Both the position numbers and the translations under genes were made by a program. Of a stretch of DNA of 53,223 nucleotides, positions 95-44,923 are shown one piece after another. Numbering within the stretch: position 1 is the stretch's first letter; every line of letters starts with the position of its first letter. The notes under the pieces are model-generated. The model was not told the DNA's origin, did no database searches, and was given only the letters and a program-made list of their open reading frames with translations. Source of the DNA: a virus (lineage: Duplodnaviria; Caudoviricetes); IMG/VR virus record IMGVR_UViG_3300048550_000310, positions 1 through 53,223 of that record; one strand, 5' to 3'.

Positions 95-994
95 TCAATT
101 AGGTTTTATGTTTCTGATATGCTTTAATCTTTTATCATAAAACAATTCACCCGCTTCAAAGGGAGAAACTCTTTCGATTTTAATCTGTCTAATAAAACGA
201 GGATTAAATAACATTCTAAATTTTACCATCAAATCATTAGGAGAAGATCCATATATGATAGTAGTCCCCATCTCAGGTACAGTTACTTTATATTGATACA
301 AACGGGAGGGTCTATCGCAAGGGGCAGCTGCCGATTCTTTCATTGATGAAAGTTGACTCTTTTTCGCCCGTTTTTTCTTAGCATTGTTCATAACAGATGA
401 TGCAGTATCAATAGGTTTATCTGGGAGAGAAATTCCTTTGCTATCAAATCCAGGACGATCTGCCTGCATAACATTCTTTTTGGGGGTTGTAGGTGTTGTT
501 GATGAAGGTAATTTAGATTTAGGTGCATCAAATTTAGGTAAATTTCCAATTGTACTTTGTCCCATAGAGGATGTACTACCAGCCATACTACCACTCATGC
601 GGGCAGGAAACCCTGACCCTGTAGGAGTAGATGGTTTTTGTGCGGGTTGTTGTTTAGGTTTAGAACCCATTACACCTTTAACTGCATTACCAACTCCTTT
701 CAAAATACCACCAAGAAACTCATTGATCTGCTCTTCGCTTAAATCATAACCTTGCTCTCTGAGTTTATTAATTCTCTCCAATTGTTTTTCTAAAATAACA
801 TCATCTAATTTTTCCTGGTAACTACGATGGTCTTCTGCCTTCAATGTATTACCAGGCATCACAAGTTTCTTATCCTTTTTACTCTTAACCTTCCTCCGAA
901 ATTTCATGACAGGATCATATCCAGCATTAGGTCCAGTCGCATCTGCGCTGGCACTAAAACCTCCATTTCCAACTGCCATCATTTCTTCTTGCAT
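95..994 (-). CDS. Low-complexity basic protein, candidate internal head (poly)protein
   Basis: 299 aa ORF with K/P/S/G-rich core; shares LSEEQ(I/L)NE(F/L)LGG and MQAxRPGF modules with neighbouring large ORFs. Confidence 0.7.
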   Translation of the reverse strand: MQEEMMAVGNGGFSASADATGPNAGYDPVMKFRRKVKSKKDKKLVMPGNTLKAEDHRSYQEKLDDVILEKQLERINKLREQGYDLSEEQINEFLGGILKGVGNAVKGVMGSKPKQQPAQKPSTPTGSGFPARMSGSMAGSTSSMGQSTIGNLPKFDAPKSKLPSSTTPTTPKKNVMQADRPGFDSKGISLPDKPIDTASSVMNNAKKKRAKKSQLSSMKESAAAPCDRPSRLYQYKVTVPEMGTTIIYGSSPNDLMVKFRMLFNPRFIRQIKIERVSPFEAGELFYDKRLKHIRNIKPN

Positions 995-1353
995 TAGATT
1001 GACTCCAATTGTAAACTCACATGACCATCAATATCTAATTCAGGTAAGAACCCTATAGGATATTTATTCAAATAAATAAGAAACGTTTTCATAAGGGACC
1101 AATACTCTTTTCCCATATAAAGAAATAAGAGAGGTGTTGCTGCTTCACCAAAAACATTATATATGATAATCAAATGATTGAGTATTAAAGGTATTCTCAA
1201 CTCATCATTCTTTAAATATCTTTTAAAAAGACGCTTCAAATATTTAAAGCGTCTCATATCCTCATCAAAATCATCTCGTGTATGACACTGAGGATTATTA
1301 TAATGTTTCATGGCGAACAGAATAGCGTTATTGTTATTCAGTTCGTCAAACAT
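994..1353 (-). CDS. Conserved T4-like phage hypothetical protein
   Basis: 119 aa; FAMKHYNNPQC...RFKYLKRLF...LILNHLIIIYNVFG pattern typical of cyanomyovirus core hypotheticals; TAATG coupling to next gene. Confidence 0.75.
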   Translation of the reverse strand: MFDELNNNNAILFAMKHYNNPQCHTRDDFDEDMRRFKYLKRLFKRYLKNDELRIPLILNHLIIIYNVFGEAATPLLFLYMGKEYWSLMKTFLIYLNKYPIGFLPELDIDGHVSLQLESI

Positions 1354-1356
1354 TTA

Positions 1357-1983
1357 TTAACTACCAAATGTAAGTGTTGCTGCTCCGTCAGAAATAATTT
1401 CCTCAGTACCACCTGCAGAGGTGATCTTGACACGATACTTATAACCGTCAAGCGAATCATCACCGAGACTGCTGTATGCCAGAGTCGCAGTAGTGAAGTC
1501 TGCATAGGTTACACCAGTGTCAAGAGATGCGCTGATGTTGACCCAACGGGTTGTTGCCGCAGCGGTCTGACGTTGCCACTGATAGGACAGAGCACCAGGT
1601 GTTCCTGATGTGGAAGTGCTGAGGGTAAATGTGCCTGCACCAGAGGAGGAAGTAGAAGCAGCGGGTTGTGCCGAGATGGTCACTGCAGATGCTACGTCTG
1701 CTGCAATAGTATCATCACTCAGAGTCTCATCTGCGTTTGCCTCAGGATTAGTGAGGATCATCAGGTGCTCTGCCTTATGACGAGTGTTGCCATTGTGATC
1801 GGTGTAGGTGCGATATGCCCACCAACCAGGTGAGGTGATACCACGCACTTTGTTTTCGTTCAGACCTGCCTCGGTCTCGTCAACGAATACAATAGTTTCT
1901 GTTACAGACCCTGCGCCATTACCTCTAGTCAAGCCGACTTGGGTCTGATTGGCGGTAGAGTCAACTCTTCCGTATAAAGACAT
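1357..1983 (-). CDS. Putative virion structural protein with C-terminal Ig-like domain
   Basis: 208 aa, T/S/A-rich; ITAQP-like ...YQWQ...YKYRVKIT...AATLT pattern of an Ig-like fold; late promoter directly upstream. Confidence 0.65.
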   Translation of the reverse strand: MSLYGRVDSTANQTQVGLTRGNGAGSVTETIVFVDETEAGLNENKVRGITSPGWWAYRTYTDHNGNTRHKAEHLMILTNPEANADETLSDDTIAADVASAVTISAQPAASTSSSGAGTFTLSTSTSGTPGALSYQWQRQTAAATTRWVNISASLDTGVTYADFTTATLAYSSLGDDSLDGYKYRVKITSAGGTEEIISDGAATLTFGS

Positions 1984-2011
1984 TGTGCTCTCCGAATATT
2001 TTCCGTATATT

Positions 2012-2019
2012 TATTTATA
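2012..2019 (-). promoter_or_regulatory. T4-type late promoter TATAAATA
   Basis: Exact TATAAATA on the minus strand 29 nt upstream of ATG 1983. Confidence 0.75.
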
Positions 2020-2020
2020 A

Positions 2021-2215
2021 TTAACGTGCTTTAATAGCCTCCTCTACCTTGTGTAGAAGACGATCATCCATGTCAGTCTTAGTTAATTTGACTGCTTTTT
2101 TAAGAATAATAAGACACACATCAATAAGCTTTTCGCCAAGCTCCTCGTCGTCGGGGAGCTTAGCGACAGCATCCGTAATAATCTTTTGTGCTAATGGAAG
2201 TAAGAATGCTAACAT
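2021..2215 (-). CDS. Hypothetical protein
   Basis: 64 aa helical ORF filling the gap between co-oriented genes. Confidence 0.7.
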   Translation of the reverse strand: MLAFLLPLAQKIITDAVAKLPDDEELGEKLIDVCLIILKKAVKLTKTDMDDRLLHKVEEAIKAR

Positions 2216-2253
2216 GACTAGTACCTATATAATCGGGTCTAATCTATATATGC

Positions 2254-4779
2254 TCAGTCGAAACGAGATGTGTGTTTCGCCATAGCATCGTCATCTTTCT
2301 TTTGCTTCTTAGTCTTACCATGCTTGAGAAGACGCTCGGTGTACTTGTTAACTCTTCTGTTATGAGTTTCAAGTTCACTTTCCTTTTCACCTCTCTTCTT
2401 CTTACTAGTGCGCTTGGCACCAGGGAAGTTTTTCTGGTGCTCTCTTGCTTCAACTGATTTGTTGATGTCAAGTTTCTTACCAGTCTTCTTTTCATAATCA
2501 TCAAGAACGCCTTGACGCTTCTTGACTCTTTCTAAAGACTTCTTAGCATCTTCCCCTCTATCTTCACTCAAGGCATTAATTACACCAAAAGATCTTAATC
2601 TACTAGATTCATTGAATTTACTCCAATCAATCGAAGATGATCCCGGTTTCTTTCCAGTAGGTACTTTCTTTATCGGTTTTGGTCCACCCGAACTTGGAGA
2701 AGATGAAGGACTAGGCGGTTTGTTTACACTTGGTTTTGGTGCACCCGAATTATTAAATCCAGGACGACCTGCCTGCATCGGTTTTGGTTTAGGACCAGAA
2801 GTAGTAGGTTTATTATTTGCAATAGAAACATTGTTTGCTTTCATGGCAGCTTTGTAAAAACCGCCTTTGCCCTTGCCACCACCAAAGATGGGGCTCTTAT
2901 ACATCATCTTCTGCGTGAAAGCTGACATTGGTCTATATGCGGATGGACCAGTTCCATATTGACCAGGACGACCGCGAGGCATTTGGGGAATAGGTACAAA
3001 TCCTTGCTCATCATCATTTTTGTCAACTTGGAATCGGTTTCCTACAACTTTACCACCACCCATGCTTCCTAGAGGAGACTTGAATGCACCTGGATTAGCC
3101 TTGAATGCAGACTTAAAATCCTTTTTGCTATCGTAAGTGCTACCTTTCTTTGCTTCAATAGAACCGGGCAGTGCTTCATCAATTTGATCACCTTCTGGTT
3201 CATAACCAGCAGTCTCAAGAGACTTCTTACCTTTTGCCAAAGGAAGTTGAGGACCAGTCCTCTTCATAAAAGCATCTTTTTCATTGGGATTTGTAGTACC
3301 TTTACCCTTGTCATAGATCTTTTTGCCTTTCATGGCACCTCTATGACCAGGACCGATATCAAAACTCGCTTCAGTCAAGTCGGTTTCAGTTTCGTAGCCT
3401 TCTTGATAGCCTTCTTCTGAAACTTCTTCTTGACTGACATACGCATAGCCCTCCGTAGATACTGTTTTTTCGTCACCTAAATCATCTTTGCGGCGTTTTT
3501 GCTGACACTTCATACAATCACAGTCTTCACCATGATTCTTTTTTACATCACCACCCTTAGAATAGGAACCGCAACCCCCTTCTAAGAGATCATCTTTCTT
3601 AGGATTTAATTTAATTTTGGTTTTTTTTTCAACCAAATAGTCAGCAAATCCTAAGAAAGATTCTTTCTTAGTTTTCTTCTTGACTTCACCGCCTTTTGAT
3701 TTACCTTGATAAGGTTCTACCTTAATTGGTGTTGGTGTTTTGACTTCGGGTGCCTTCGCCCTAATCGGAGGATTAGATGGCATTCCTTTACCGGATGTGC
3801 CAGATCCAAATGTACCGTCTCTCCCAGAACCAGTGTTAGCAGGTACTACTGCTGGCGGAGTCTTTGGTGTGTTAACGCTCTTAATCGCTTTGTCTACAGA
3901 TGCCTGCCTTTCGGTTTGCTTCTTATTAATCTTGTCGGCGTTAGGAGACTGTGCAATAGAAGCAGCCTTAGCATCCTGTCTAGCTTTTTCATTTCCTGCA
4001 TTACGGCTCTTACGATCCTTAATGTACTTCTGCATCAAAGGATTGGTAGACTTCGATGTACCTCTAGTGGCATCACGCTTTGCTTTTGCTGCAGCAAGTT
4101 TTGGATTTGCCTTTTTCCATGCTGCCATACCAGCAGACTCAGCATCTTTTGTTGCTTTCTTCTTGGCATCACCTGTTGCTGCATTAGCAGCAGCTCTCTT
4201 CGTAACATACTCAGCGTTCCTAGTATCATTCTTAGCAGAAGGTTTCTTAGGTTTGGGTGAAGAAGGAGGATTGTCTCTGGTTTGTTTTGCTAGTCTGCTT
4301 TTGTTTGCAGCATTTTTTGCTCTTTCTTGATCAGCTGCAGCATCAGCGGCAGTATAGTTAGAACTATCCTTTGTATCTGCTTTTGTTTTTGTTTTTGTTT
4401 TTGGATCTTTACTACCACCAGAACCATACTGATTAGTTCCAAAGAACTCAGCAGGATTTTTGCTTCTATCTTTTTGATTCCTTGCAGTAATTTCGTCGTC
4501 CTTATCGGTTCTTTTTGGCGGTGCCCTACGAGCCTTTTCTGGTCTTGTTTCACCGTCTACTGCCTGTCCTTTCCTATTAAAAGATGTAGTATGCCCAAAT
4601 CCTGTTTGTGGAGTTCTATCACCAGATCTTACAGCCGGTTCATTGGACCTACTGGGTTCAGGAACTACAGTACGAATACCTTTTTTAACAATATCACCCA
4701 GTCCAAGAACACCTCGCTGCAGCAAATTTAGGTCCTTTTTTTTCTCGTGTAAGTCGGAAAAGTTTTTAAATGATTTCAT
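2254..4779 (-). CDS. Large K/G/P-rich modular protein, candidate capsid-targeted internal polyprotein
   Basis: 841 aa; N-terminus MKSFKNFSDLHE resembles the T4 capsid-targeting sequence; basic blocks separated by acidic (L/I)xE-ending linkers. Confidence 0.7.
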   Translation of the reverse strand: MKSFKNFSDLHEKKKDLNLLQRGVLGLGDIVKKGIRTVVPEPSRSNEPAVRSGDRTPQTGFGHTTSFNRKGQAVDGETRPEKARRAPPKRTDKDDEITARNQKDRSKNPAEFFGTNQYGSGGSKDPKTKTKTKADTKDSSNYTAADAAADQERAKNAANKSRLAKQTRDNPPSSPKPKKPSAKNDTRNAEYVTKRAAANAATGDAKKKATKDAESAGMAAWKKANPKLAAAKAKRDATRGTSKSTNPLMQKYIKDRKSRNAGNEKARQDAKAASIAQSPNADKINKKQTERQASVDKAIKSVNTPKTPPAVVPANTGSGRDGTFGSGTSGKGMPSNPPIRAKAPEVKTPTPIKVEPYQGKSKGGEVKKKTKKESFLGFADYLVEKKTKIKLNPKKDDLLEGGCGSYSKGGDVKKNHGEDCDCMKCQQKRRKDDLGDEKTVSTEGYAYVSQEEVSEEGYQEGYETETDLTEASFDIGPGHRGAMKGKKIYDKGKGTTNPNEKDAFMKRTGPQLPLAKGKKSLETAGYEPEGDQIDEALPGSIEAKKGSTYDSKKDFKSAFKANPGAFKSPLGSMGGGKVVGNRFQVDKNDDEQGFVPIPQMPRGRPGQYGTGPSAYRPMSAFTQKMMYKSPIFGGGKGKGGFYKAAMKANNVSIANNKPTTSGPKPKPMQAGRPGFNNSGAPKPSVNKPPSPSSSPSSGGPKPIKKVPTGKKPGSSSIDWSKFNESSRLRSFGVINALSEDRGEDAKKSLERVKKRQGVLDDYEKKTGKKLDINKSVEAREHQKNFPGAKRTSKKKRGEKESELETHNRRVNKYTERLLKHGKTKKQKKDDDAMAKHTSRFD

Positions 4780-4782
4780 TGT

Positions 4783-7005
4783 TCAACCTCCGTAATTGTC
4801 GCGTGCTTTTTCATCACCCATTTTAGAGAAACGTTCTCTCTCTTTTTGTCTAGCAATAGCACTCACAATCTTGGCAGACTTTTTGCGTGCCTTTTCTTTC
4901 TCATCAGGATCATCAGCAGAAAGAGACTTTCTTGCTAAGTTACCCGCTCTACGATACATTGAATTCTCTTTCTTTTTATCGATTTCTTTGTAACCTTCTT
5001 CGATTACATGTTCGATTTCTTGGATAGAGAAAAGACCAGATTCATACAGATGTGCAATCTGTTCATAATCTTCACCTAAGCGATTTGCAAGTTTATCACT
5101 GCCGCTGGATACTGCACGAGACAGTTTACCAACACCTTTTTTCAGAGCACCCTTAAGTACACCACCAACTCTCTGAATGAAAGTAGGTTTCTCCCCTTTA
5201 CTCTTACCACCTGATTTACCGGAACCGGATTCACCTCTAGCATCACCTCTAATACTAGAGAGGATGTCATCTAACTTACCACCTGTTTTGTCACCATCAT
5301 CATCAGATTTTTTCTTTTTACCATCACCACGCTCCATAGCAGCCTTCTTAGACTTCTTACGTTGTGCTTGGAACTCACCAACACCATGACCAATAGCACG
5401 ACCGCCAGCACCAATTACTGCTTTGGCACCTGCCTTAAGACGCTCACCTGCTTTTGCAGCAGCGGACTTAAGACGATCCATAGCGGAAGGTTTCTTTTTA
5501 TCATCATCCTTCTCCTCTTCCTCCATGAGGATGCCACAGATTTCAAGTTCCTCACAGATTTCAAAAAGATCCTGATCATCTTCTGCCATTTCAAGAATAG
5601 CATCCTCAAAGAATGCTACGAGTTCTTCGTCAGACACATCATCAAAATTACACCCCTCAATGAAGAGTTCCTCTTCTTCAGAGAATGCAAGCGATTCCTT
5701 TCTAGCCTTCACCATATTTCGAGGAATATTTTCCCTGGTTCTTTCTCTTGCACTATCAAAGGTACTCTTTACATTTGATACTTTTTTCTTTAAGTATGCA
5801 GGTCCCTTTGTTATTGCTCTTTCAGTACCACCAACAATATTTCCAGCAAGTCTTGCAGCCTTATCAGCAAATTCCCCTACTGGTCCTTCAAAGATATCGT
5901 CAAGTTCATCATGAATAACTTCTTCTTTATGTGCTTTCTTTTTCTCACCACCTTTGGAGAATCCGAGAAGTCCCTTCGTGGTAGGTTTCTTGCCCATTGC
6001 CTGACCAGCAAGACCGCCGATGCCAGTGCTGGCACCCTTCATGAATCCGCCTTTCTTACCCATGTTCATGAGTCCGCCGACGAGACCACCAAGAAGTTCA
6101 TTCAGTTGCTCCTCACTCAGTTGAAGAAGATCGTTAACGAGTGCTTCCTTGAGCATATCACCTTCCGGTTCATAAACAGCATCCCTTGCTCTGCCACCAG
6201 GAGTCATCTCATCAAGCATATTTGCTACCATATCAACATGGACATTCTCTTTCTTTACAGGACCACCTTTAGAGCGACCCATCAATTTATCCATCTGCAT
6301 TTTACGATCACCCAGAGCGCCGCCAACTCTGTGAACCATGCCACTACCAGTCTTATTACCAACAGGACCCTTTGTTTGTGTCTTAGCAAGAGGGTTCTTA
6401 ATATCTAAATTGGGATGACCAATATAACCATCACCTTTCCTACCGCCAATAAATTCAAGAACAACATCAAGTTGCTCCTCGTGATTTGCCGATAATAGAG
6501 AATCAACAAATTCTTCTACTTCCTCTTTTTTAAGTCTGCTCCAACCAAATCCCTTAGGAGATCCCTTTAGTTTGGACCCGCCAGTTTGACCGCCAGATTG
6601 ACCGCCAGCAGGACCGCCTGATCCTGAACCGCCAGCAGAACCCTTTGCACCCATAGTAGCAGTAGTTTTATTCAAACCCCTACCAGTTTGAACACCATGA
6701 ACATTCTCACCGGGTTGACGACGTTCACCTTTAGTAGTGTATTTGGTGTTACGGTTCCATGGAAGCGCATCAGTTACATCGGCAGCCATTTTAGCCAACC
6801 CTTCTTCTACCGCTGCCACCTCCTCACTACGAGTCTTGATGGCTTTACCACGAACCTTACGGCGATTCAAAAGATACTTATCGGACTTATCATGATCTCC
6901 ATCATTATCAATATCCTTATCTTCTTGTCCAACAGGATCTAGTTTTTTGCCTTCATACACTTGCCTGAGTGCATCAGACATGTCAATTGGTTTAGGATCG
7001 TACAT
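4783..7005 (-). CDS. Large modular protein with alternating acidic and basic blocks, candidate internal head polyprotein
   Basis: 740 aa; LDPVGQEDKDIDNDGDHDKSDKYL motif; repeated acidic linker-(L/I)xE-basic/Gly-rich module; ATAAATA upstream at 7030-7036. Confidence 0.7.
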   Translation of the reverse strand: MYDPKPIDMSDALRQVYEGKKLDPVGQEDKDIDNDGDHDKSDKYLLNRRKVRGKAIKTRSEEVAAVEEGLAKMAADVTDALPWNRNTKYTTKGERRQPGENVHGVQTGRGLNKTTATMGAKGSAGGSGSGGPAGGQSGGQTGGSKLKGSPKGFGWSRLKKEEVEEFVDSLLSANHEEQLDVVLEFIGGRKGDGYIGHPNLDIKNPLAKTQTKGPVGNKTGSGMVHRVGGALGDRKMQMDKLMGRSKGGPVKKENVHVDMVANMLDEMTPGGRARDAVYEPEGDMLKEALVNDLLQLSEEQLNELLGGLVGGLMNMGKKGGFMKGASTGIGGLAGQAMGKKPTTKGLLGFSKGGEKKKAHKEEVIHDELDDIFEGPVGEFADKAARLAGNIVGGTERAITKGPAYLKKKVSNVKSTFDSARERTRENIPRNMVKARKESLAFSEEEELFIEGCNFDDVSDEELVAFFEDAILEMAEDDQDLFEICEELEICGILMEEEEKDDDKKKPSAMDRLKSAAAKAGERLKAGAKAVIGAGGRAIGHGVGEFQAQRKKSKKAAMERGDGKKKKSDDDGDKTGGKLDDILSSIRGDARGESGSGKSGGKSKGEKPTFIQRVGGVLKGALKKGVGKLSRAVSSGSDKLANRLGEDYEQIAHLYESGLFSIQEIEHVIEEGYKEIDKKKENSMYRRAGNLARKSLSADDPDEKEKARKKSAKIVSAIARQKERERFSKMGDEKARDNYGG

Positions 7006-7006
7006 T

Positions 7007-8158
7007 TTACTCAGCGGTCTTATCCTTTTTATTTATCTTCTTTCTACCTTCACCTGGTGTCAATTTTATCATATAATCTCTAAGTTCAGATGTACCAACC
7101 TCACCTGCAGGTGTCCAATTAAAATATTTAAGATCATTAATCTCATGAAGATCCTTTAACCATGATCTAAAAATATTATCATTCTCATCAACATAGATGA
7201 CATAATTACTACCACGACTAACAACTTTTCCAATAACTCCAGTGTTTACATTCTCAACTATCGCACCAATATTAAATAAGACATCATCAAAATATGCTTC
7301 CCTTAAACCCTGAGGATCTAACTTAGGAGCGATCTCATGTAAGTCATATGAAACTTCTGCAAAATCACTAAACTCCTCAACCTGCATAGAACCCCTAAGA
7401 GTATTATAAAGTTCTTGCTTATCTTTTCTACTTAATCCTTCAGGCATACCAGCAACAAAGGTATCATAATCATCTTCCGCTGCTGCTTGTCTAAGTTTAG
7501 ATGCAGACATACCTTCAACACCTTCAGAATCTGGGTCTCTATTGCCTGCAGATACTACATTAATTTTTTCAAAATTATACAGTTTGCCGTTGTACTTGTT
7601 TGCTAACGAGTTAAACTCACTAACCCTGTCACCTCCCACAACCAAAGTAACGCCGCTATACCCCTCACTATCGAGAGCGGTGAGAACATCAAAAATACTA
7701 CGCATATTATCATTCGCGATAATTGCATTAGAGTGATCGGGATATGCCTTCCGCATAAATTTAATTTTAGTACCCGGATCGAGAGGATTCTTTTTGGGGT
7801 CCTGCGATCTACTGGGATATATTCTATACTCTCCATTCTTTGCCTCTCGGGCGACTCTTTTTATTAGAGATTCATGTCCGATAGTAGGGGGATTAAATCT
7901 TCCAAAAGTAATAGCAATCGTACCTTGATCGACCGCACCCGAGCCATCTCCAGTTTCTTCTGCTCCATTCTGTTGATCAGCAACTGCTTGGGTACTAGGA
8001 TCTAATTGTACAAGTTTTCCGTCCTGAGACATATGAGTAACTTCGCCACGTTCGTTGGCGTATCTACCATACCCTACATGTGTCAGTCTTAATTTTTCTG
8101 CGTCCTGTGATGCGCGAGATCTTGCCGCTTCAGTTAGGAAAGCACTAAAACTTTTCAT
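7007..8158 (-). CDS. HIGH-family nucleotidyltransferase ('cytidyltransferase') with capsid-targeting-like N-terminus
   Basis: 383 aa; TFGRFNPPTIGH (HIGH motif), VGGDR, MSASKLR; begins MKSFSAFLTE. Confidence 0.85.
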   Translation of the reverse strand: MKSFSAFLTEAARSRASQDAEKLRLTHVGYGRYANERGEVTHMSQDGKLVQLDPSTQAVADQQNGAEETGDGSGAVDQGTIAITFGRFNPPTIGHESLIKRVAREAKNGEYRIYPSRSQDPKKNPLDPGTKIKFMRKAYPDHSNAIIANDNMRSIFDVLTALDSEGYSGVTLVVGGDRVSEFNSLANKYNGKLYNFEKINVVSAGNRDPDSEGVEGMSASKLRQAAAEDDYDTFVAGMPEGLSRKDKQELYNTLRGSMQVEEFSDFAEVSYDLHEIAPKLDPQGLREAYFDDVLFNIGAIVENVNTGVIGKVVSRGSNYVIYVDENDNIFRSWLKDLHEINDLKYFNWTPAGEVGTSELRDYMIKLTPGEGRKKINKKDKTAE

Positions 8159-8159
8159 T

Positions 8160-9068
8160 CTACCAATTTTTTTTAAGATTAAAGTTTGCTTTACTAAAAG
8201 TCAGTCGATCTACAATTTTATATGGATTGTTCGAGATTATTACAAAGCCTTCGTGTGAAGATGGTTTACCATCAATGAAACATTCAACATTCCCATTTGT
8301 GACAATCGCATCCAGTAGACGCTGTTTCAGTTGGAAGATTTTATGCCACACCATAAGGGTCTGAACATTAACCTCTTGTTTATATTTAGCATCCATAGCA
8401 GCGTACATAACTCCGGCACTCGGAATGCTGCCAGCGCGAATAAATTTATTGACAAAGGTCCTCAAATACAATCTAGTGTGCTTGTCTTTAGATACCTTAC
8501 ACTGAGGAATCAATGTAAGAATCTCAGCAATCAATTTGGGTGCAAACCATTTACTAACACGAGCATCAGTAGTATCGATGAACTCGGTGCCTAGTGCAGA
8601 CGAAAGTTTAACACCAATATGTGCCTCAGCATTAGGAGATACCTCAGTGTACCTGGTGTGAGGTGCTACAATAATATCCCTAGTAACAGGAGAATCAAAC
8701 CGATAACTAATAGTGTTGGGAGTATATGTCCTGCCGCCACCAACACCAATAAAGTCAGCTTGAACAATATCATTAATACGGGGAAGATTATGAAGACACA
8801 AACGAAGGATATCAGCGACCCTACCAGTATGGTTTTGATCGATATCTTCTTGGGTATAATTAATTTTGACTTTAATTTTGTTAAAGACTGACTTTGTTCC
8901 CACAAAAAACTTGCCATTTTCAGGATTAGTACCAAAAACAATTGCGGGAGCACCGTCCCATTTGACACTGACTTTACTACAGAGAACTGCCTGCCGGACA
9001 GCATCAAGTGCCACACGACGACCGTCGAAGATAGAATCCTCTAGGTGTTCAAGGTGTTTGTTGGGCAT
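8160..9068 (-). CDS. Conserved phage protein with ATP-dependent ligase-like nucleotidyltransferase motifs
   Basis: Start moved to ATG 9068 (MPNKHLEHLED, GAGG upstream); VKWDGAP (KxDG), HEGFVI and YKIV motifs. Confidence 0.65.
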   Translation of the reverse strand: MPNKHLEHLEDSIFDGRRVALDAVRQAVLCSKVSVKWDGAPAIVFGTNPENGKFFVGTKSVFNKIKVKINYTQEDIDQNHTGRVADILRLCLHNLPRINDIVQADFIGVGGGRTYTPNTISYRFDSPVTRDIIVAPHTRYTEVSPNAEAHIGVKLSSALGTEFIDTTDARVSKWFAPKLIAEILTLIPQCKVSKDKHTRLYLRTFVNKFIRAGSIPSAGVMYAAMDAKYKQEVNVQTLMVWHKIFQLKQRLLDAIVTNGNVECFIDGKPSSHEGFVIISNNPYKIVDRLTFSKANFNLKKNW

Positions 9069-9089
9069 GTCCCTCGTGTCTATACCACT

Positions 9090-9134
9090 ATTATAGCATG
9101 TCAAAGTTGAGTCGCACATAGGGTTGTGACAGTT
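9090..9134 (-). promoter_or_regulatory. Putative early promoter AACTGTC-N29-TGCTATAAT
   Basis: Extended -10 TGCTATAAT plus an upstream AACTGTC box; same architecture at 27931-27974 and 30301-30344. Confidence 0.65.
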
Positions 9135-37917: not shown

Positions 37918-39297
37918 TCACATGAGGTTTGCAACCTGTACACGACGGTAATACTTGTTGGCGTTGGCGGTAAGAGCGCCAGAACCTTGAGTAAGACCAC
38001 CAGAGAAGGGGTTCGAGACCATGCCGTAGCGAGTCTTGAAGCCGATCTTGGGCTGGAAGGTGTTAGGGTTGATTGCACGAACCTGCTGGAGAGGAACGTA
38101 AGGGCAATAGAACAGACCAGCGTCATAAGGAGAAGTACCCTTATAACCAGCAACGTAGAAGTGCTTATCAGCAACGTTTGCAGAGTAAGGATCAACATAG
38201 ACCTTGATGCGACCGTTGAGCGTACCAACCAGAGTGCTGGAGGTATCATCAACTGCAGTCAGAGAGTTGTTGCCGTTCAGAGCAGGGGTGTAATCAAGAA
38301 CACCAGCCATACCCAGAGCAGAAGCAACGTCTGCAGAGCAGATCAGGATGTTGCCCTTCCCGCGACGAGTTTGCTGACCGATTGCGTTAGCATCTCTTTC
38401 GATCTGGAACAGAAGTCCTTTGAACTTCTCAACAGACCAACGACCATTAGAGTCAACGTCAAGGTCGAAGATACCTGCAGATGCAGTGTTGTTCTGAGCA
38501 CCAGCAACAGCGTTGGTGTAGATGGTACGAACAACTTCTCTGTTGATTTCAGCGAGGATCTCAGTAGAGAGGATGTTGCTCAGTTCCTGCTCAGCATCCA
38601 GACCATGAATTGCCTTCAGGTCTTGTGCGAGTTCGATGCTGTACTCAGCTTTCAGGGCACGAGCCTTTGCTGTTACAGTGACCTTCTCGATCGAGAAGCC
38701 CATTTCACGGAACTCGCTTCCAGAGGTAGCGTCGTCCAGACCCTCAACAGTAGCAGTGCTCATGCCTTGAGCATCGCCAGTCAGTTCGTAGGTGCCAGGA
38801 GAACCGTCGTTCAGAACTGAAGGGTTGTTACCCTCAGCGTCGTTATTAGCAGAGCTAGAAGCACCAGGATCGTAGGAGGTGCCAGCACCACCAGAGAAAC
38901 CAGCGTTGGGCTCATTGAAGAATGCCTCGTCATAACCGCCAGCACCGGGATTGCGCTCGCTACCATAGTTGGTACGCATTGCGAAGATCAGTCCGGTAGG
39001 ACCAGTCATCGGTTGAACGCCAGCGATATCATAGGCGATTAGTTGGGGCATGGAGCGTCTGATCAGCGAGATCAGAACGGGGTCGAAACCAGCAACAGGA
39101 CCACCAGCGGTCGAAGCGCCGGTATAGCCGGTTGTTTGAAGAGTCTCGTTAAGAACTGAAGCTTCTTCAGTTAAGGCTTTTTCTTGGTTTTCCAGAAGTT
39201 GTGCGACTACGCCTTTCTTATAGGAATCACCGATCTCGGGTAGAGCATCGTGTTCCAGAACGGGTGCCCACTTCTCCTGAAGATTTTGGATTGACAT
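37918..39297 (-). CDS. g23: Major capsid protein gp23
   Basis: FDPVLISLIRR, GVQPMTGPTGLIFAMR, AEINREV, FQPKIGFKTRYG. Confidence 0.98.
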   Translation of the reverse strand: MSIQNLQEKWAPVLEHDALPEIGDSYKKGVVAQLLENQEKALTEEASVLNETLQTTGYTGASTAGGPVAGFDPVLISLIRRSMPQLIAYDIAGVQPMTGPTGLIFAMRTNYGSERNPGAGGYDEAFFNEPNAGFSGGAGTSYDPGASSSANNDAEGNNPSVLNDGSPGTYELTGDAQGMSTATVEGLDDATSGSEFREMGFSIEKVTVTAKARALKAEYSIELAQDLKAIHGLDAEQELSNILSTEILAEINREVVRTIYTNAVAGAQNNTASAGIFDLDVDSNGRWSVEKFKGLLFQIERDANAIGQQTRRGKGNILICSADVASALGMAGVLDYTPALNGNNSLTAVDDTSSTLVGTLNGRIKVYVDPYSANVADKHFYVAGYKGTSPYDAGLFYCPYVPLQQVRAINPNTFQPKIGFKTRYGMVSNPFSGGLTQGSGALTANANKYYRRVQVANLM

Positions 39298-39327: not shown

Positions 39328-40347
39328 TTATTTGGACCAGCGAGCAATCGCATCGACGTATTTACCCATCGTGCCGCTTGCTGTGCTTTCGATAAGGGGT
39401 TCAGAGACTTCTTCAGTGGGGTCAGCAGAATATTCTACATCAGCCTTTCTAGTGAAGTATGATTCCTTAATCGTCTCGACTTTAGTTTTAAAGTCTTCTT
39501 CAGTTTCAAACTCAACACCCTCAGTAAGAGAAGCTAACTTCTCTTTTTGGGTCTCAGCGAGTCCCGTAGCGCATTCGTTCACAATTTCCATTTTAACAAA
39601 TTCACCAAGTTGCTTATTCAAAGCAATATTGGCGTCGATTTGCTCGTTGAGTTTATCTTCCATCTCATCAAGCTCAACTGCCAGACCATCTAGCAAGTTG
39701 AATTTCTCTTCGGGAACACCAACATTGTGCTCCACAAAAAGATCTCTTAGACCGTTGAAGAGTGACTCCGCAATATCAGACTTGATGCCATGTTCAATCT
39801 GGAGAGTATTTTCCTCAATCCAAGATTGTGCGGCGTAAGTCAGGTAGTCATCAACCTTCTCGGCCAATTCTGTTTTGATCTGCTCTACCTCTTCGGTAAG
39901 AGTAGATTCAAATGCTTCTTGCAATGCAGCGACTTCTACATTGACTTTTGAGGTGACTGCAGCTTCAAAAATTGTTACTGCACGCTCTCTGAATTCTTCT
40001 GAGAGGTCTTCACCTGCGACAAGAGCGTCAACATCTTCAGTAAAGTCGTACTCGGTTTCAGTGAGGACTTCTTCTTCATCTTCGTATCCCTCTTGTTTTG
40101 CAGATGCAGCAGATGGTTTCGTGGACAAGGACTTAGAACCTTCATGACCTACCGAACGAGCGGCGGATGAACCAGCGTTCTTAGTACCTTTTGCGCCTTC
40201 CAGCGAATCGGTTGTCACATCGATTACCTTGGCGGCACCACCTTTAGAGGTATCGATCTTTTCACCGGGTTTTGCGTTTTTGGTGACAGCGTTGGAACCT
40301 TCTTCCAACTCCTGTGCCTCAAACTCTCTATCGAGGGATTCAGACAT
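39328..40347 (-). CDS. g22: Prohead core scaffold protein gp22
   Basis: Acidic coiled coil, TIFEAAV...KVDDYL...IKESYF; between g21 and g23; start moved to ATG 40347. Confidence 0.92.
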   Translation of the reverse strand: MSESLDREFEAQELEEGSNAVTKNAKPGEKIDTSKGGAAKVIDVTTDSLEGAKGTKNAGSSAARSVGHEGSKSLSTKPSAASAKQEGYEDEEEVLTETEYDFTEDVDALVAGEDLSEEFRERAVTIFEAAVTSKVNVEVAALQEAFESTLTEEVEQIKTELAEKVDDYLTYAAQSWIEENTLQIEHGIKSDIAESLFNGLRDLFVEHNVGVPEEKFNLLDGLAVELDEMEDKLNEQIDANIALNKQLGEFVKMEIVNECATGLAETQKEKLASLTEGVEFETEEDFKTKVETIKESYFTRKADVEYSADPTEEVSEPLIESTASGTMGKYVDAIARWSK

Positions 40348-40384
40348 TTGATATTCTCCGTTATGCATTAGCTTTGTCTATGTT

Positions 40385-40394: not shown

Positions 40395-41039
40395 TCACAA
40401 ACTCTTTAAAAATCTCGCAAACGCGGAAACTTTGCGTTCTTGAAGATTGATAAGAGTTGCTTCATCAATTTCAGTTTTGATTTGAGCAACAGCCGCCTCT
40501 TTGAGGATGCCATTATCCCAAACCCATTCTTTTCCTTCCATAATACCGTCAACAAATGCATCAGGAGCAGAAGGATCAGCAACGATATCAGCTGCAGTAG
40601 CAAGCATGAAATCGTCCGCAACCATGTTGCAGTTTTCCTTTTTAATAATAGAACCCATACCTCTGGATGAAACACCCAGTTTTACACCTTCATCGAGTAG
40701 ATTTTTTGCAATTTTCCCCATAGGTGTATCTAGGAGTTTTGCACGACCGACGAAGTTGGTTCCATCTTCCGACAGAGATGTAATCTTATGTGATACTCTA
40801 TCGAGATTGATAGAGGGACCATCGGGATGACCTAATTCACCAAGAGCACGCCCTTTGCGAATATAGTTCTCATCGTATTTAGCAACTTCGCGTGCCAAAG
40901 TTTTCATTGGGTACATTCTGCCGTTGCGGTTTCTCAATTCCGCTTGCAGAAAGATACCTTCAATGAAGTAATTCTTTTTACCATCTTTCTCTTCACAGAG
41001 AAAATCGATATTTGTAATCTCTTCGGCTATGAGTCTCAT
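40395..41039 (-). CDS. g21: Prohead protease gp21
   Basis: NRNGRMY, ALGELGHP, GVSSRGMG, DIVADPSAPDA; start moved to ATG 41039. Confidence 0.95.
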   Translation of the reverse strand: MRLIAEEITNIDFLCEEKDGKKNYFIEGIFLQAELRNRNGRMYPMKTLAREVAKYDENYIRKGRALGELGHPDGPSINLDRVSHKITSLSEDGTNFVGRAKLLDTPMGKIAKNLLDEGVKLGVSSRGMGSIIKKENCNMVADDFMLATAADIVADPSAPDAFVDGIMEGKEWVWDNGILKEAAVAQIKTEIDEATLINLQERKVSAFARFLKSL

Positions 41040-41043
41040 CGGT

Positions 41044-41352
41044 TTATTCCTCAGGTTCTTGTTCGTCAGTTTCATACTCTGCTTCGGGTGATTCATGAGG
41101 TTGACGTTCGTCAACATCTACATCCGTATACTCAATATCAGTTCCATCTGGAAGTTGATCTTTGAGTTCATCCGCAACACCTTGAGCAGTGTCATCTGGA
41201 TTAAATCCCCAACTCTGAACAAAATCTTGTTTTCCTTGCTGAATAGCATCATAGCTGATTGCCCCAAGAGCATCAGCAACAGAATCAATAGACTTTGCTT
41301 TTTCGTCGTTATAGATTTGATCTACAATTTGTCTGGCGATATCGCTAGGCAT
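41044..41352 (-). CDS. Acidic prohead-core-like protein (g67/g68 position)
   Basis: 102 aa, acidic, between g20 and g21; ATAAATA upstream at 41376-41382. Confidence 0.65.
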   Translation of the reverse strand: MPSDIARQIVDQIYNDEKAKSIDSVADALGAISYDAIQQGKQDFVQSWGFNPDDTAQGVADELKDQLPDGTDIEYTDVDVDERQPHESPEAEYETDEQEPEE

Positions 41353-44374: not shown

Positions 44375-44923
44375 TTACTTCTCTTCTACAGTCCAGTGAC
44401 TATACTGCCACTCACATGTAAATTCTTCAACTGCATCGTTTGAAGCAAAATCAAGATCAATTGCAGACATTGACGATGGGAAAGCATTATGGAACTGATA
44501 CTTTCTAGCCATAGATAAATCATCAGTTGCCTTAGAATCTCGTTTGAAGGCAACTACAGTTAAAGTCGTAGTGTAATCTAGATTACCTGTTTTAGTGTAG
44601 TTGGTTTCGAGATCTTGAATATCTTTAATCCAACTTTCGATGAATTTTCTAACTTCAAATTCTTCGGTATTCATGATGGTAGTAGACCAAGCATCAAAAG
44701 TTCTATCCCCAGGAACATTAAACACCCTTCCTTGAAATGGAATTGCAATAGTTCCGATATTAGATGCGGGAAGAGAAGTTGCTTTAATTAGAAATGAAGA
44801 TTTTGCCGGAATAGTTTTACTCGACAAATTAGTGTTCGTTCCTAACGTCACCTTAAATAGGTTAGACCTGGCGAACCCTGTGTCGATCTTGCTCTTGAAG
44901 TCACTCAAAGATTTTTTTGCCAT
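44375..44923 (-). CDS. g19: Tail tube protein paralog 1 (gp19-like)
   Basis: ARSNLFKV, LPASNIG.IAIPFQGR...PGDRTFD.W, FPS.MSAIDL, VEEFTCEWQY. Confidence 0.85.
   Translation of the reverse strand: MAKKSLSDFKSKIDTGFARSNLFKVTLGTNTNLSSKTIPAKSSFLIKATSLPASNIGTIAIPFQGRVFNVPGDRTFDAWSTTIMNTEEFEVRKFIESWIKDIQDLETNYTKTGNLDYTTTLTVVAFKRDSKATDDLSMARKYQFHNAFPSSMSAIDLDFASNDAVEEFTCEWQYSHWTVEEK

Follow-up and report, generated by a model that had tools for sequence, protein, structure and literature searches.

We found a block of genes at positions 95-8158 of an uncultured viral contig of 53,223 nucleotides (IMG/VR record IMGVR_UViG_3300048550_000310, hereafter the window) that is likely to be the cyanophage counterpart of the internal-protein loci of phage T4. 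The window is a contig of a T4-like cyanomyovirus, and its DNA and proteins resemble those of Synechococcus and Prochlorococcus cyanomyoviruses, none of which is close: in a megablast search against phage records, 95-8158 gave 257 matches, the best of them covering 27% at 75% identity. We refer to the proteins of the window by their length in residues; handles such as L003, P0001 and G001 denote comparison loci, proteins and a genome. The cluster comprises the following genes.

7007-8158, minus strand: p383, a gp184-family HxGH nucleotidyltransferase ('cytidylyltransferase'/NMNAT-like; PF01467, E=1.3e-06; phrog_395, E=2.6e-118; AF2 model; Foldseek matches to PPAT and NaMNAT)
4783-7005, minus strand: p740, a disordered gp185-family protein with alternating acidic and basic or Gly-rich blocks (phrog_764, E=9.5e-121, residues 408-740)
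2254-4779, minus strand: p841, a disordered gp186-family protein of net charge +75 (phrog_1784, E=6.7e-53 at residues 731-841)
1357-1983, minus strand: p208, a gp188-family 'head protein' (phrog_613, E=1.5e-101), with the late-promoter-like TATAAATA at 2012-2019
95-994, minus strand: p299, a gp190-family small virion protein with an insertion (phrog_696, E=2.2e-47, and alignment)

Every gene of the cluster is carried on the minus strand. The cluster lies between gp41/MazG on one side and the end of the window on the other, and its gene order is that of gp182-gp191 in Syn9, where the block is situated between gp41/MazG and gp61; the same order is found in ACG-2014g, S-SZBM1, S-PM2 and S-SCSM1. 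The syntenic block extends past 8158 to about 10426. Among named phages, Syn19 has the p383 homologue of highest identity (71.5%). The original prediction for this DNA described the 299-, 740- and 841-residue products as cargo polyproteins that the prohead protease gp21 cuts into cationic peptides. Its positions, lengths and N-termini of the reading frames (383 residues, MKSFSAFLTE; 841 residues, MKSFKNFSDLHE; 740; 299) agree with ours, and the T4 facts that it stated, namely the targeting sequence MKTYQEFIAE and cleavage by gp21 after Glu, are borne out by the T4 record and by the available text of PMC9026906. It called the two leader-bearing genes adjacent; the leaders are present, and the 740-residue gene intervenes between them.

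A probable T4-type capsid-targeting leader on p383

In what follows, an arrow marks a predicted or candidate cut.

8129-8158, minus strand: T4-type capsid-targeting leader of p383, MKSFSAFLTE, with a predicted cut after Glu10 (E↓A); the sole match in the window, from comparison with T4 and 25 leaders

T4 IPII and IPIII, as well as IPI, carry a capsid-targeting sequence (CTS) (Mullaney and Black 1996, as summarised in PMC9026906), in which, according to the available text of that review, residues 4 and 7 mainly direct targeting and residues 8 and 10 direct processing. The T4 genes ipII and ipIII, translated from NC_000866, begin MKTYQEFIAE↓A, and p383 begins MKSFSAFLTE↓A. The p383 leader thus follows the T4 pattern, in which position 4 is aromatic and positions 7, 8, 10 and 11 are Phe, Leu/Ile, Glu and Ala, and agrees with IPII and IPIII at each position that is important in T4 genetics. 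We compared 47 gp184 orthologues, drawn from the window, two named records and IMG/VR loci, which have 25 distinct leaders. M1, K2, F4, F7, E10 and A11 are invariant and L8 is found in 24 of the 25; position 6 takes five different residues and position 9 takes nine. The constant residues are encoded by synonymous codons (five for L8 and four for A11), indicating that the constraint acts on the peptide and not on the RNA. Elsewhere in the cluster, p841 matches this leader loosely (F4, F7 and LHE at 10-12), and p740 and p299 have no such leader.

We then investigated how specific the leader is. The strict pattern, back-translated as M-K-x-[FY]-x-x-F-(xTx codon)-x-E, matches once in the window, at p383, and in none of 100 shuffles, and a relaxed pattern matches two of the 236 ATG-initiated open reading frames (ORFs) of at least 40 residues in the window, p383 and p841. 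In T4, the strict pattern has three matches, namely ipII, ipIII and gp61.1 (54 residues). Syn9 (gp184), ACG-2014g (gp184) and S-SZBM1 (gene 191) have one match each, and the complete IMG/VR genome G001 has two, gp184 and a 172-residue basic cassette at the same locus that starts MKTYSQFIEE. The reversed strict pattern had no match across these five comparison genomes. Among 793 coding-strand ORFs of 47 cyanophage loci, 46 strict, 47 relaxed and 34 gp186-type leader matches were counted, and the three patterns had no match among the 230 opposite-strand ORFs; the leader-bearing N-termini listed for these loci belong to gp184 orthologues, gp186 orthologues and four cassette ORFs.

Leaders also occur in distant homologues of p383, as MKSFLQFLKE↓A in S-SCSM1 and MRFRQFIIE↓A in S-SZBM1, and in contigs outside the cyanophages MSFPSFKQYLVE↓E immediately precedes the catalytic domain of the p383 homologues. 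The gp21 family phrog_207 was not found in five contigs with distant leader-bearing nucleotidyltransferases, an uninformative result as these contigs are 15-26% complete and the control matched in none of them. A complex prediction for gp22 and residues 1-60 of p383, run without controls, scored 0.00 and weighs neither way. In the literature searched, we found no paper that ties the capsid-targeting sequence to cyanophages; one T4 review has both terms.

The only strict match in T4 beyond ipII and ipIII, the hypothetical protein gp61.1 (NC_000866 18966-19130; positions 667-831, minus strand, of locus L087), starts MKTFKEFIKE↓D and adjoins the primase gene 61. We assume that T4 gene 41 is on its other side; if so, gp61.1 occupies the same interval as the cyanophage cluster. 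The sole strict match in S-SZBM1, gene 191 (positions 1412-1729, minus strand, of locus L088), encodes an acidic protein of 105 residues that starts MKSFKSFLSE, and it adjoins the virion structural gene 190, at a distance from the gp184 cluster.

Head-maturation genes in the window

40395-41117, minus strand: gp21-type prohead protease (phrog_207, E=5.2e-89; LGELGHP and GVSSRG retained)
39328-40368, minus strand: gp22-type scaffold with 16 [LI]xE sites (phrog_237, E=1.1e-125)
37918-39297, minus strand: gp23 major capsid protein (phrog_138), with the probable maturation site VLNE51↓T

A phage with CTS-bearing head proteins would be expected to have a gp21-type protease and a gp22-type scaffolding core, and both are encoded in the window. 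The protease matches the solved structure of T4 gp21 (5JBL, E=6.9e-20), and its His and Ser motifs, LGELGHP and GVSSRG, are both present. The probable maturation site of gp23 reads VLNE↓T in the window and FLTE↓A in T4. Genes for the portal, the sheath and the large terminase are present as well. Between the portal and the protease genes, in the position that gp67/gp68 have in T4, is a gene for a very acidic DUF7216 protein (phrog_683; 102 residues; 41044-41352, minus strand) with no [LI]xE site.

p383 is an HxGH nucleotidyltransferase

7379-7921, minus strand: nucleotidyltransferase domain of p383, about residues 80-260 (invariant columns, model and fold matches)

From its N-terminus, p383 has the leader, a small conserved domain, an acidic linker that varies, the catalytic domain and, at the C-terminus, a β domain. 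It scores 29.1 bits against PF01467 (CTP_transf_like; E=1.3e-06), for which the cut-off is 21, and belongs to the HxGH nucleotidyltransferase superfamily. This superfamily is characterised by a Rossmann-like fold with (H/T)xGH and ISxSxxR-type motifs. In p383, T92-x-G94-H95 and M217-S-A-S-K-x-R223 are invariant among 21 aligned sequences. In the AlphaFold model (AF2), confidence is good for most of residues 80-260 and for the small C-terminal β domain, and the leader is a low-confidence helix; blocks of the domain model have pLDDT values of mostly 73-91, with two at 65-68. The nearest folds of the core in Foldseek are PPAT (1o6b, E=4e-06, TMt 0.72) and NaMNAT (9fyb), at 14-18% identity; the fold is equally near PPAT and NMNAT. 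A phmmer search against PDB sequences gave nothing at E<=1. As for an NMN/NaMN adenylyltransferase, the best NCBIfam model, TIGR00482, gave 21.6 bits against a cut-off of 112; in the same scan p383 had only sub-threshold NMNAT matches and six other proteins had none. Because the superfamily motifs and the fold are present and the NMNAT models score far below their cut-offs, we call p383, from its sequence and model, an HxGH nucleotidyltransferase and do not assign a substrate.

Residues 279-344 of p383, in the C-terminal β domain, match phrog_4808, which in S-PM2 is a separate 91-residue ORF (p144) mislabelled as a ribonucleotide reductase subunit. The next gene, p319 (8160-9119, minus strand), encodes a DUF6267 protein (E=9.6e-98) that includes VKWDGAP, whose KxDG we take to be like the motif found in capping enzymes and ligases. 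Fusions of DUF6267 with a p383-type nucleotidyltransferase occur in other phage contigs (phrog_455; 575-835 residues, N-terminus MFKLIKEA).

Relatives of the cluster proteins in purified virions

The virion evidence comes from orthologues and relatives of the proteins of the window. By mass spectrometry (MS), relatives of p383, p740, p299 and p208, and also modules of p841, are present in purified virions of three or four cyanophages. S-SM1 virions contain a putative cytidylyltransferase, T4-GC190 (Sullivan et al. 2010, PMC3037559, in the part of that paper available), and S-PM2p142, a gp184 homologue, bears the same label. The virion proteome of S-SZBM1 includes genes 136, 139 and 140 (PMC9146016, available text). 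By synteny and BLAST, gene 136 is the p208 homologue and gene 140 the p383 homologue; gene 139 has no BLAST match to p740 at E<1e-3 and shares five PHROG families with it, including phrog_764. The GenBank record of S-SCSM1 gives the label 'virion protein' to genes 89, 90, 91, 92, 93, 95 and 97 of this block (PMC9602691, available text). Gene 91 is the p383 homologue and gene 97 matches phrog_696, the family of p299. Gene 92 (520 residues, net charge +41) has four PHROGs in common with p740 and is 73% identical to it over 37 residues; gp186-type modules are present in gene 92 too. The identity of p383 is 43% to S-SCSM1_91 (400 aligned columns) and 40% to S-SZBM1_140. The proteome of S-CREM2 contains the cytidylyltransferase ORF154 and the next ORFs, 155 and 156, whose homology is unchecked (PMC10665884, Table 3, available part). 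Taken as a whole, the cluster very probably encodes virion proteins, and p740 and p299 are regarded as virion-associated since relatives that share their families are.

p841 is a mosaic with an internal leader

4744-4779, minus strand: N-terminal leader of p841, MKSFKNFSDLHE, gp186-type with three extra residues, followed by KKK (pattern matches)
3628-3660, minus strand: internal copy of the gp186 leader, residues 374-384, SFLGFADYLVE↓KKTKIKLNPKK, kept in L003 and L005
3368-3444, minus strand: acidic island AYVSQEEVSEE..ETDLTE, 94.8% identical in nucleotides to L003 and L005
3175-3369, minus strand: 65-residue basic insertion, residues 471-535, between DLTE↓A and QIDE↓A, missing in L003 and L005
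2563-2589, minus strand: third leader-like motif, residues 731-739, FGVINALSE↓D, directly before the conserved gp186 C-terminal module

In p841, a member of the gp186 family (phrog_1784), an N-terminal unit (residues 1-384) is fused to a canonical gp186-type unit. Most orthologues at the position of Syn9 gp186 start M-L-S/T-F-K-x-L-S-E-K-K-T-K-V-K-I-N-P-K and are 125-878 residues long, and six sequences have net charges of +14 to +94. We took a gp186-family member to have a leader M-[LK]-S/T-F-x-x-[LF]-x-E↓KK, then KxKINPK and a basic mosaic body. The canonical leader of p841 is the internal one (residues 374-395) and the N-terminal one is a variant. As the internal copy is kept in L003 and L005, p841 seems to have arisen by the joining of two or more leader-plus-cargo units. 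The N-terminal unit also has a conserved basic segment at about residues 175-320, which is present in ten metagenomic proteins. K and R make up 21% of p841, which is nearly uniformly basic with just three acidic islands. The flanks of the island at 3368-3444 have 72-81% nucleotide identity (72-73% to L003 and 73-81% to L005). The ESM Atlas model of p841 is disordered (pLDDT 0.45), as is that of p740 (0.42), and the Atlas leads for both are all below 0.9. Pfam gave no match in p841, p740 or p299. Being very basic, disordered and mosaic, p841 is probably a DNA-associated internal protein.

Compared with L003, p383 is 97% identical and p841 37%, and the p299 homologue can be aligned only in its C-terminal part. 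In the DNA, the flanks have 87-90% identity, and the centres of p740, p841 and p299 have 72-75% or cannot be aligned. DUF6321 is mobile between genes: in L008 it stands alone after a T4-like leader, and in L018 it forms part of a 621-residue gp186-family protein.

p740, p299 and p208

6067-6180, minus strand: two shared modules of p740, residues 276-313, AVYEPEGDMLKE↓AL and LSEEQLNE↓LLGG (blastp-short)
329-832, minus strand: disordered insertion of p299, about residues 55-222, missing in 15 of 16 aligned orthologues and containing LSEEQINE↓FLGGILKGVG (residues 85-102)
104-307, minus strand: conserved β-β-α-β-α domain of p299, residues 230-297 (pLDDT 83-89)

The p740 protein is a gp185-family member (phrog_764) whose conserved part is the C-terminal one (residues 408-740); its N-terminal two-thirds are largely lineage-specific insertions. 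It aligns with gp185 of Syn9, and also with ACG-2014g, over acidic helices and a Lys/Ala/Gly-rich region. Its net charge is balanced (+4) with 14% Gly; the charge of 20-residue windows drops to -8 or -9 near residues 161, 361 and 441-481, and the intervening blocks have +3 to +7. The orthologues of p740 have a conserved ...PDMSDAYxQVxEKKK start after a variable extension. Since this motif is conserved downstream of the extension, we considered a translation start at Met9; the N-terminus would then read MSDALRQVYE↓GKK, placing V-x-E at positions 8-10. The PHROG label 'cytidyltransferase' for p740 was dropped, as a domain match is absent. At residues 16-61, KKLDPVGQEDKDIDNDGDHDKSDKYLLNRRK matches several PHROGs without an assigned function and recurs in S-SCSM1_92 and Syn9 gp185. 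In an Atlas cluster near p740, 15% of the members have Dockerin_1, a lead to a calcium-binding loop.

The p299 protein belongs to the gp190 family (phrog_696, 'major head protein'), whose members have about 190 residues, with a conserved GP-x-AG-x-DP in the N-terminal part and a domain of about 70 residues at the C-terminus. Its net charge is +21. The large disordered insertion between the conserved parts is found only in the window and in L003. Because the other orthologues lack it, the K/G-rich blocks are an insertion into a conserved protein. Instead of a polyprotein, p299 is a small and conserved virion protein whose disordered insertion is specific to this lineage. Foldseek found no match of the p299 model in the PDB at E<=0.001. 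Two short collinear matches link p299 with the gp23 of the window, at residues 12-30 (E=0.001) and 277-299 (E=0.013): the N-terminal GFSASADATGPNAGYDPVM is like the start of mature gp23 just past VLNE↓T, and the C-terminal end is like gp23 389-412. This likeness may be the source of the 'major head protein' label and hints at contact with the shell. We dropped the label itself, as p299 is too small and its two short matches do not amount to the full HK97-fold.

In p208, a Ser/Thr-rich segment is followed by a candidate Ig-like repeat, and the canonical TATAAATA is 35 nucleotides upstream. This late-promoter-like motif occurs six times in the window, always on the coding strand, and four of these copies lie 23-49 nucleotides upstream of gp22, the sheath gene, 44375-44923 and p208; a count of six is ordinary, being reached in 10 of 100 shuffles. 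The late-promoter-like NATAAATA is found 35 nucleotides upstream of p208 and 31 nucleotides upstream of p740, and GATAAATA is found 31 nucleotides ahead of p740. As a sign of expression of the cluster these motifs are suggestive only.

Candidate cleavage sites and shared modules

The original prediction listed ten tripeptides ending in Glu as cleavage sites, and all of them can be located: INE in p299 (90-92); LNE (301-303), VLE (182-184), LDE (264-266) and IFE (371-373) in p740; and LVE (382-384), LLE (398-400), LTE (468-470), IDE (533-535) and LSE (737-739) in p841. The alternation of charge that it described is real and strongest in p740; p841 is near-uniformly basic. We compared the [LI]xE counts with 500 composition-preserving shuffles per protein and with the reversed control Ex[LI]. 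The counts in p299 (4 against 1.6 expected, p=0.06) and p841 (6 against 2.8, p=0.06) are not above the controls. In p740, 13 sites compare with 7.7 expected (p=0.03), yet the reversed control is equally enriched (14 against 8.0), as it is in p299 (4 against 1.6). In the known substrates the forward motif is enriched, in gp22 (16 against 6.7, z=4.1) and gp21 (9 against 3.1, z=3.8), and the reversed control is not. As composition and the reversed control explain the counts, we rejected the tripeptide list as evidence of cleavage on its own.

The three proteins share short modules, found by blastp-short with a single match in ten shuffled controls: LSEEQ(I/L)NE(F/L)LGG in p299 (85-109, nucleotides 668-742) and p740 (296-313), PTT..PK..MQAxRPGF in p299 (168-187) and p841 (658-679), and YEPEGDxxxEAL in p740 (276-289) and p841 (524-537). 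A module EEQ(L/I)(N/D)E↓(F/L/I)(L/M/F)G occurs six times in this clade, in p299, p740, L003 and L005 and twice in the metagenomic relative P0006. The 18 residues after its Glu are amphipathic and cationic (hydrophobic moment, muH, 0.28-0.57; net charge +2 to +4) and are confined to this clade. This module and its amphipathic stretch are the best point in favour of a picture of spacers and peptides. The internal leader copy of p841, together with the modules that end in or hold [LI]xE, speaks for limited processing, and a cut of p841 at its internal leader copy is plausible; several internal cuts in p740, p841 or p299 are doubtful. Release of many short basic peptides, as originally proposed, does not fit, as the candidate cuts would yield products of 65 to about 370 residues. 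The proposal of a cargo locus fared better: it agrees with the p383 leader, the presence of gp21, gp22 and gp23 and the relatives in virions, and fails in that p740 and p299 are leaderless and p299 is not a polyprotein. All in all, the original observation was confirmed in part, and its interpretation was supported in part.

A probable counterpart of the T4 internal-protein loci

We favour the reading that the block 95-8158 is the cyanomyovirus counterpart of the T-even internal-protein (IP/Alt) loci. The proteins of the cluster would be built into the prohead and would remain with the virion. By means of its leader, p383 would dock to the gp22-based scaffolding core; removal of the leader after Glu10 would fall to the gp21-type protease, and p383 itself would stay in the head and enter the cell along with the DNA. 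Judging from its sequence, this leader is probably a working, cleaved CTS. p841 would use a related leader (MKSFKNFSDLHE↓KKK), and whether it works as that of p383 does is an even call; as p841 joins at least two leader-plus-cargo units, cleavage may occur at E12, at E384 and perhaps at a small number of other E↓A junctions. p740 and p299 are leaderless and have exchanged short modules with p841.

Several observations weigh against this reading. The spacing of the gp186-type leader (hydrophobic 7, Glu 9) is unlike that of T4; in p841 the ninth residue is Asp and LxE has moved to 10-12, and L003 and P0001, the closest relatives of p841, have Phe at leader position 7 and not Leu/Ile. p740 and p299 lack a CTS-like leader, and the [LI]xE counts in the cluster proteins do not exceed their controls. 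Of 30 gp186-family proteins, only 4 have an internal leader-like motif and 26 do not. The gp184 family was undetected in S-PM2 virions (PMC3037559, available part), the 23 reported virion proteins of S-SCSM2R, in the part of the report available, omit its 41%-identical p383 homologue, and S-SZBM1 138, at the gp186 position, is not among the proteome entries in the part available. MS detects co-purification with virions and does not place proteins inside the head; the authors of PMC9602691 themselves, in the text available, consider carry-over after CsCl purification possible. For all of the cluster proteins, cleavage is something that we infer.

The same observations bear on the alternatives. 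It is improbable that the 299-, 740- and 841-residue proteins are polyproteins from which gp21 excises acidic spacers at many (L/I)xE sites, leaving many short cationic peptides with a role in DNA condensation or in the host. The charge alternation, the recurrent EEQ(L/I)(N/D)E module with its amphipathic cationic follow-on, the YEPEGDxxxE↓AL common to p740 and p841, the internal leader of p841, its insertion between two E↓A junctions and the standalone and embedded forms of DUF6321 would all suit it. Yet the reversed control equals the [LI]xE count in p299 and p740, cutting at every [LI]xE would give mostly products of 65-370 residues, p299 is a conserved folded virion protein plus an insertion, most [LI]xE in the conserved part of p740 fall in conserved acidic segments that may be structural, and the 26 gp186-family proteins without an internal leader-like site do not fit. 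Wholesale cutting into many short cationic peptides is therefore speculative and unsupported. There is likewise only a slim chance that, in the clade of the window, internal head proteins have turned into true polyproteins in which gp21 cuts EEQ(L/I)(N/D)E↓FLGG, YEPEGDxxxE↓AL and internal leaders. Amphipathic cationic peptides (e.g. FLGGILKGVGNAVKGVMG...) and larger lysine-rich fragments would then reach maturity only in the capsid and leave it with the DNA; in the first seconds after infection begins they could neutralise DNA charge or disturb host membrane or defences. We would presume the freed peptides to resemble antimicrobial peptides and the lysine-rich fragments to resemble histone tails.

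We also think it unlikely that p740, p841 and p299 are an assembly-only prohead core that replaces gp67/gp68, helps to give the scaffold its shape, is degraded by gp21, is mostly expelled before packaging and has no function in the next host. According to the available text of PMC2984593, cyanophages are without gp67 and gp68, and the core proteins of T4 are acidic or charged and fragmented (PMC9026906 and PMC5694885, available text); the long acidic helices of p740 resemble T4 gp67/gp68. However, relatives that share the p740 families are present in mature S-SZBM1 and S-SCSM1 virions, the acidic DUF7216 protein (41044-41352) is already in the gp67/gp68 position, and extreme positive charge and fast mosaic turnover (p841 at 37% against its neighbour at 97% in L003) suit cargo that faces the host or the DNA and not a scaffold that sets the shape. 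It is unlikely, too, that the proteins are virion-associated but not in the head, whether as outer decoration, as neck or tail accessories or as co-purifying basic DNA-binding proteins, with an N-terminal motif that serves translation initiation or as a binding helix. In its favour, the authors of PMC9602691 raise carry-over, the p208 homologue S-SCSM1_95 has a tail-fibre annotation, and the likeness of the p299 N-terminus to the N-arm of mature gp23 (E=0.001) suggests contact with the shell. On the other hand, the p383 leader and the T4 CTS agree at precisely the positions defined by T4 genetics, the strict pattern picks ipII and ipIII in T4 and almost nothing elsewhere, the synonymous codon variation speaks against a constraint at the RNA level, and detection was repeated in four independent virion proteomes.

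The internal-protein reading can be compared with known systems. The cluster is like T4 IPII/IPIII in its ten-residue leader with the same key positions, in the gp21/gp22/gp23 system, in its basic cargo and in its hypervariable locus; in relatives, the same locus holds small basic cassette ORFs with near-identical leaders (MKTYSQFIEE and MKTFSDFLLE). Sequence similarity ends at the leader: the cyanophage cargo includes a roughly 40-kDa enzyme and disordered proteins 740-841 residues long, against 8-20 kDa in T4, the genes lie between gp41 and gp61, and targeting and cleavage are here predicted from sequence. T4 Alt, a packaged ADP-ribosyltransferase processed by gp21, is similar in being a head-borne enzyme with a short N-terminal propeptide that ends in Glu (MELITE...), and it is ejected with the DNA (PMC9026906, available text). 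p383 differs from it in fold and chemistry, being an HxGH nucleotidyltransferase. T4 gp22, gp67 and gp68, as far as the available sources describe them, are charged and partly acidic, with many (L/I)xE sites, and are fragmented by gp21; the gp22 of the window is equally enriched, but p740, p841 and p299 are unenriched and net basic, and their relatives persist in mature virions. Among the ejection proteins of the giant phages phiKZ and SPN3US, many head-internal ones are targeted by N-terminal propeptides that are trimmed after Glu, and their paralogues have conserved N-termini (PMC5694885, available text), but those propeptides have at least 100 residues and an (S/A)xE motif, and the cyanophage leaders are of T4 length and type. 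p383 itself belongs with the virion-associated NMNAT-like or cytidylyltransferase proteins of S-SM1, S-SZBM1, S-SCSM1, S-CREM2 and S-CBWM1. The papers on these proteins, in their available text, leave open how or whether the protein is packaged; our searches gave no mention of the T4-type leader for cyanophages.

A T4-type leader at the residues defined in T4 offers a testable packaging mechanism for the virion NMNAT-like enzyme; for this enzyme and its neighbours, earlier groups, in the text available, could not tell packaging from carry-over. The finding also marks the gp41-gp61 block as the probable internal-protein locus of marine cyanomyoviruses, whose fast-evolving products would be the first phage proteins met by the host. 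This is of relevance to the takeover of Synechococcus and Prochlorococcus hosts and to counter-defence, for example through an NAD- or CoA-related adenylyltransferase supplied at entry. A further possible use of the leader is the loading of cyanophage heads with foreign proteins, for which the CTS serves in T4.

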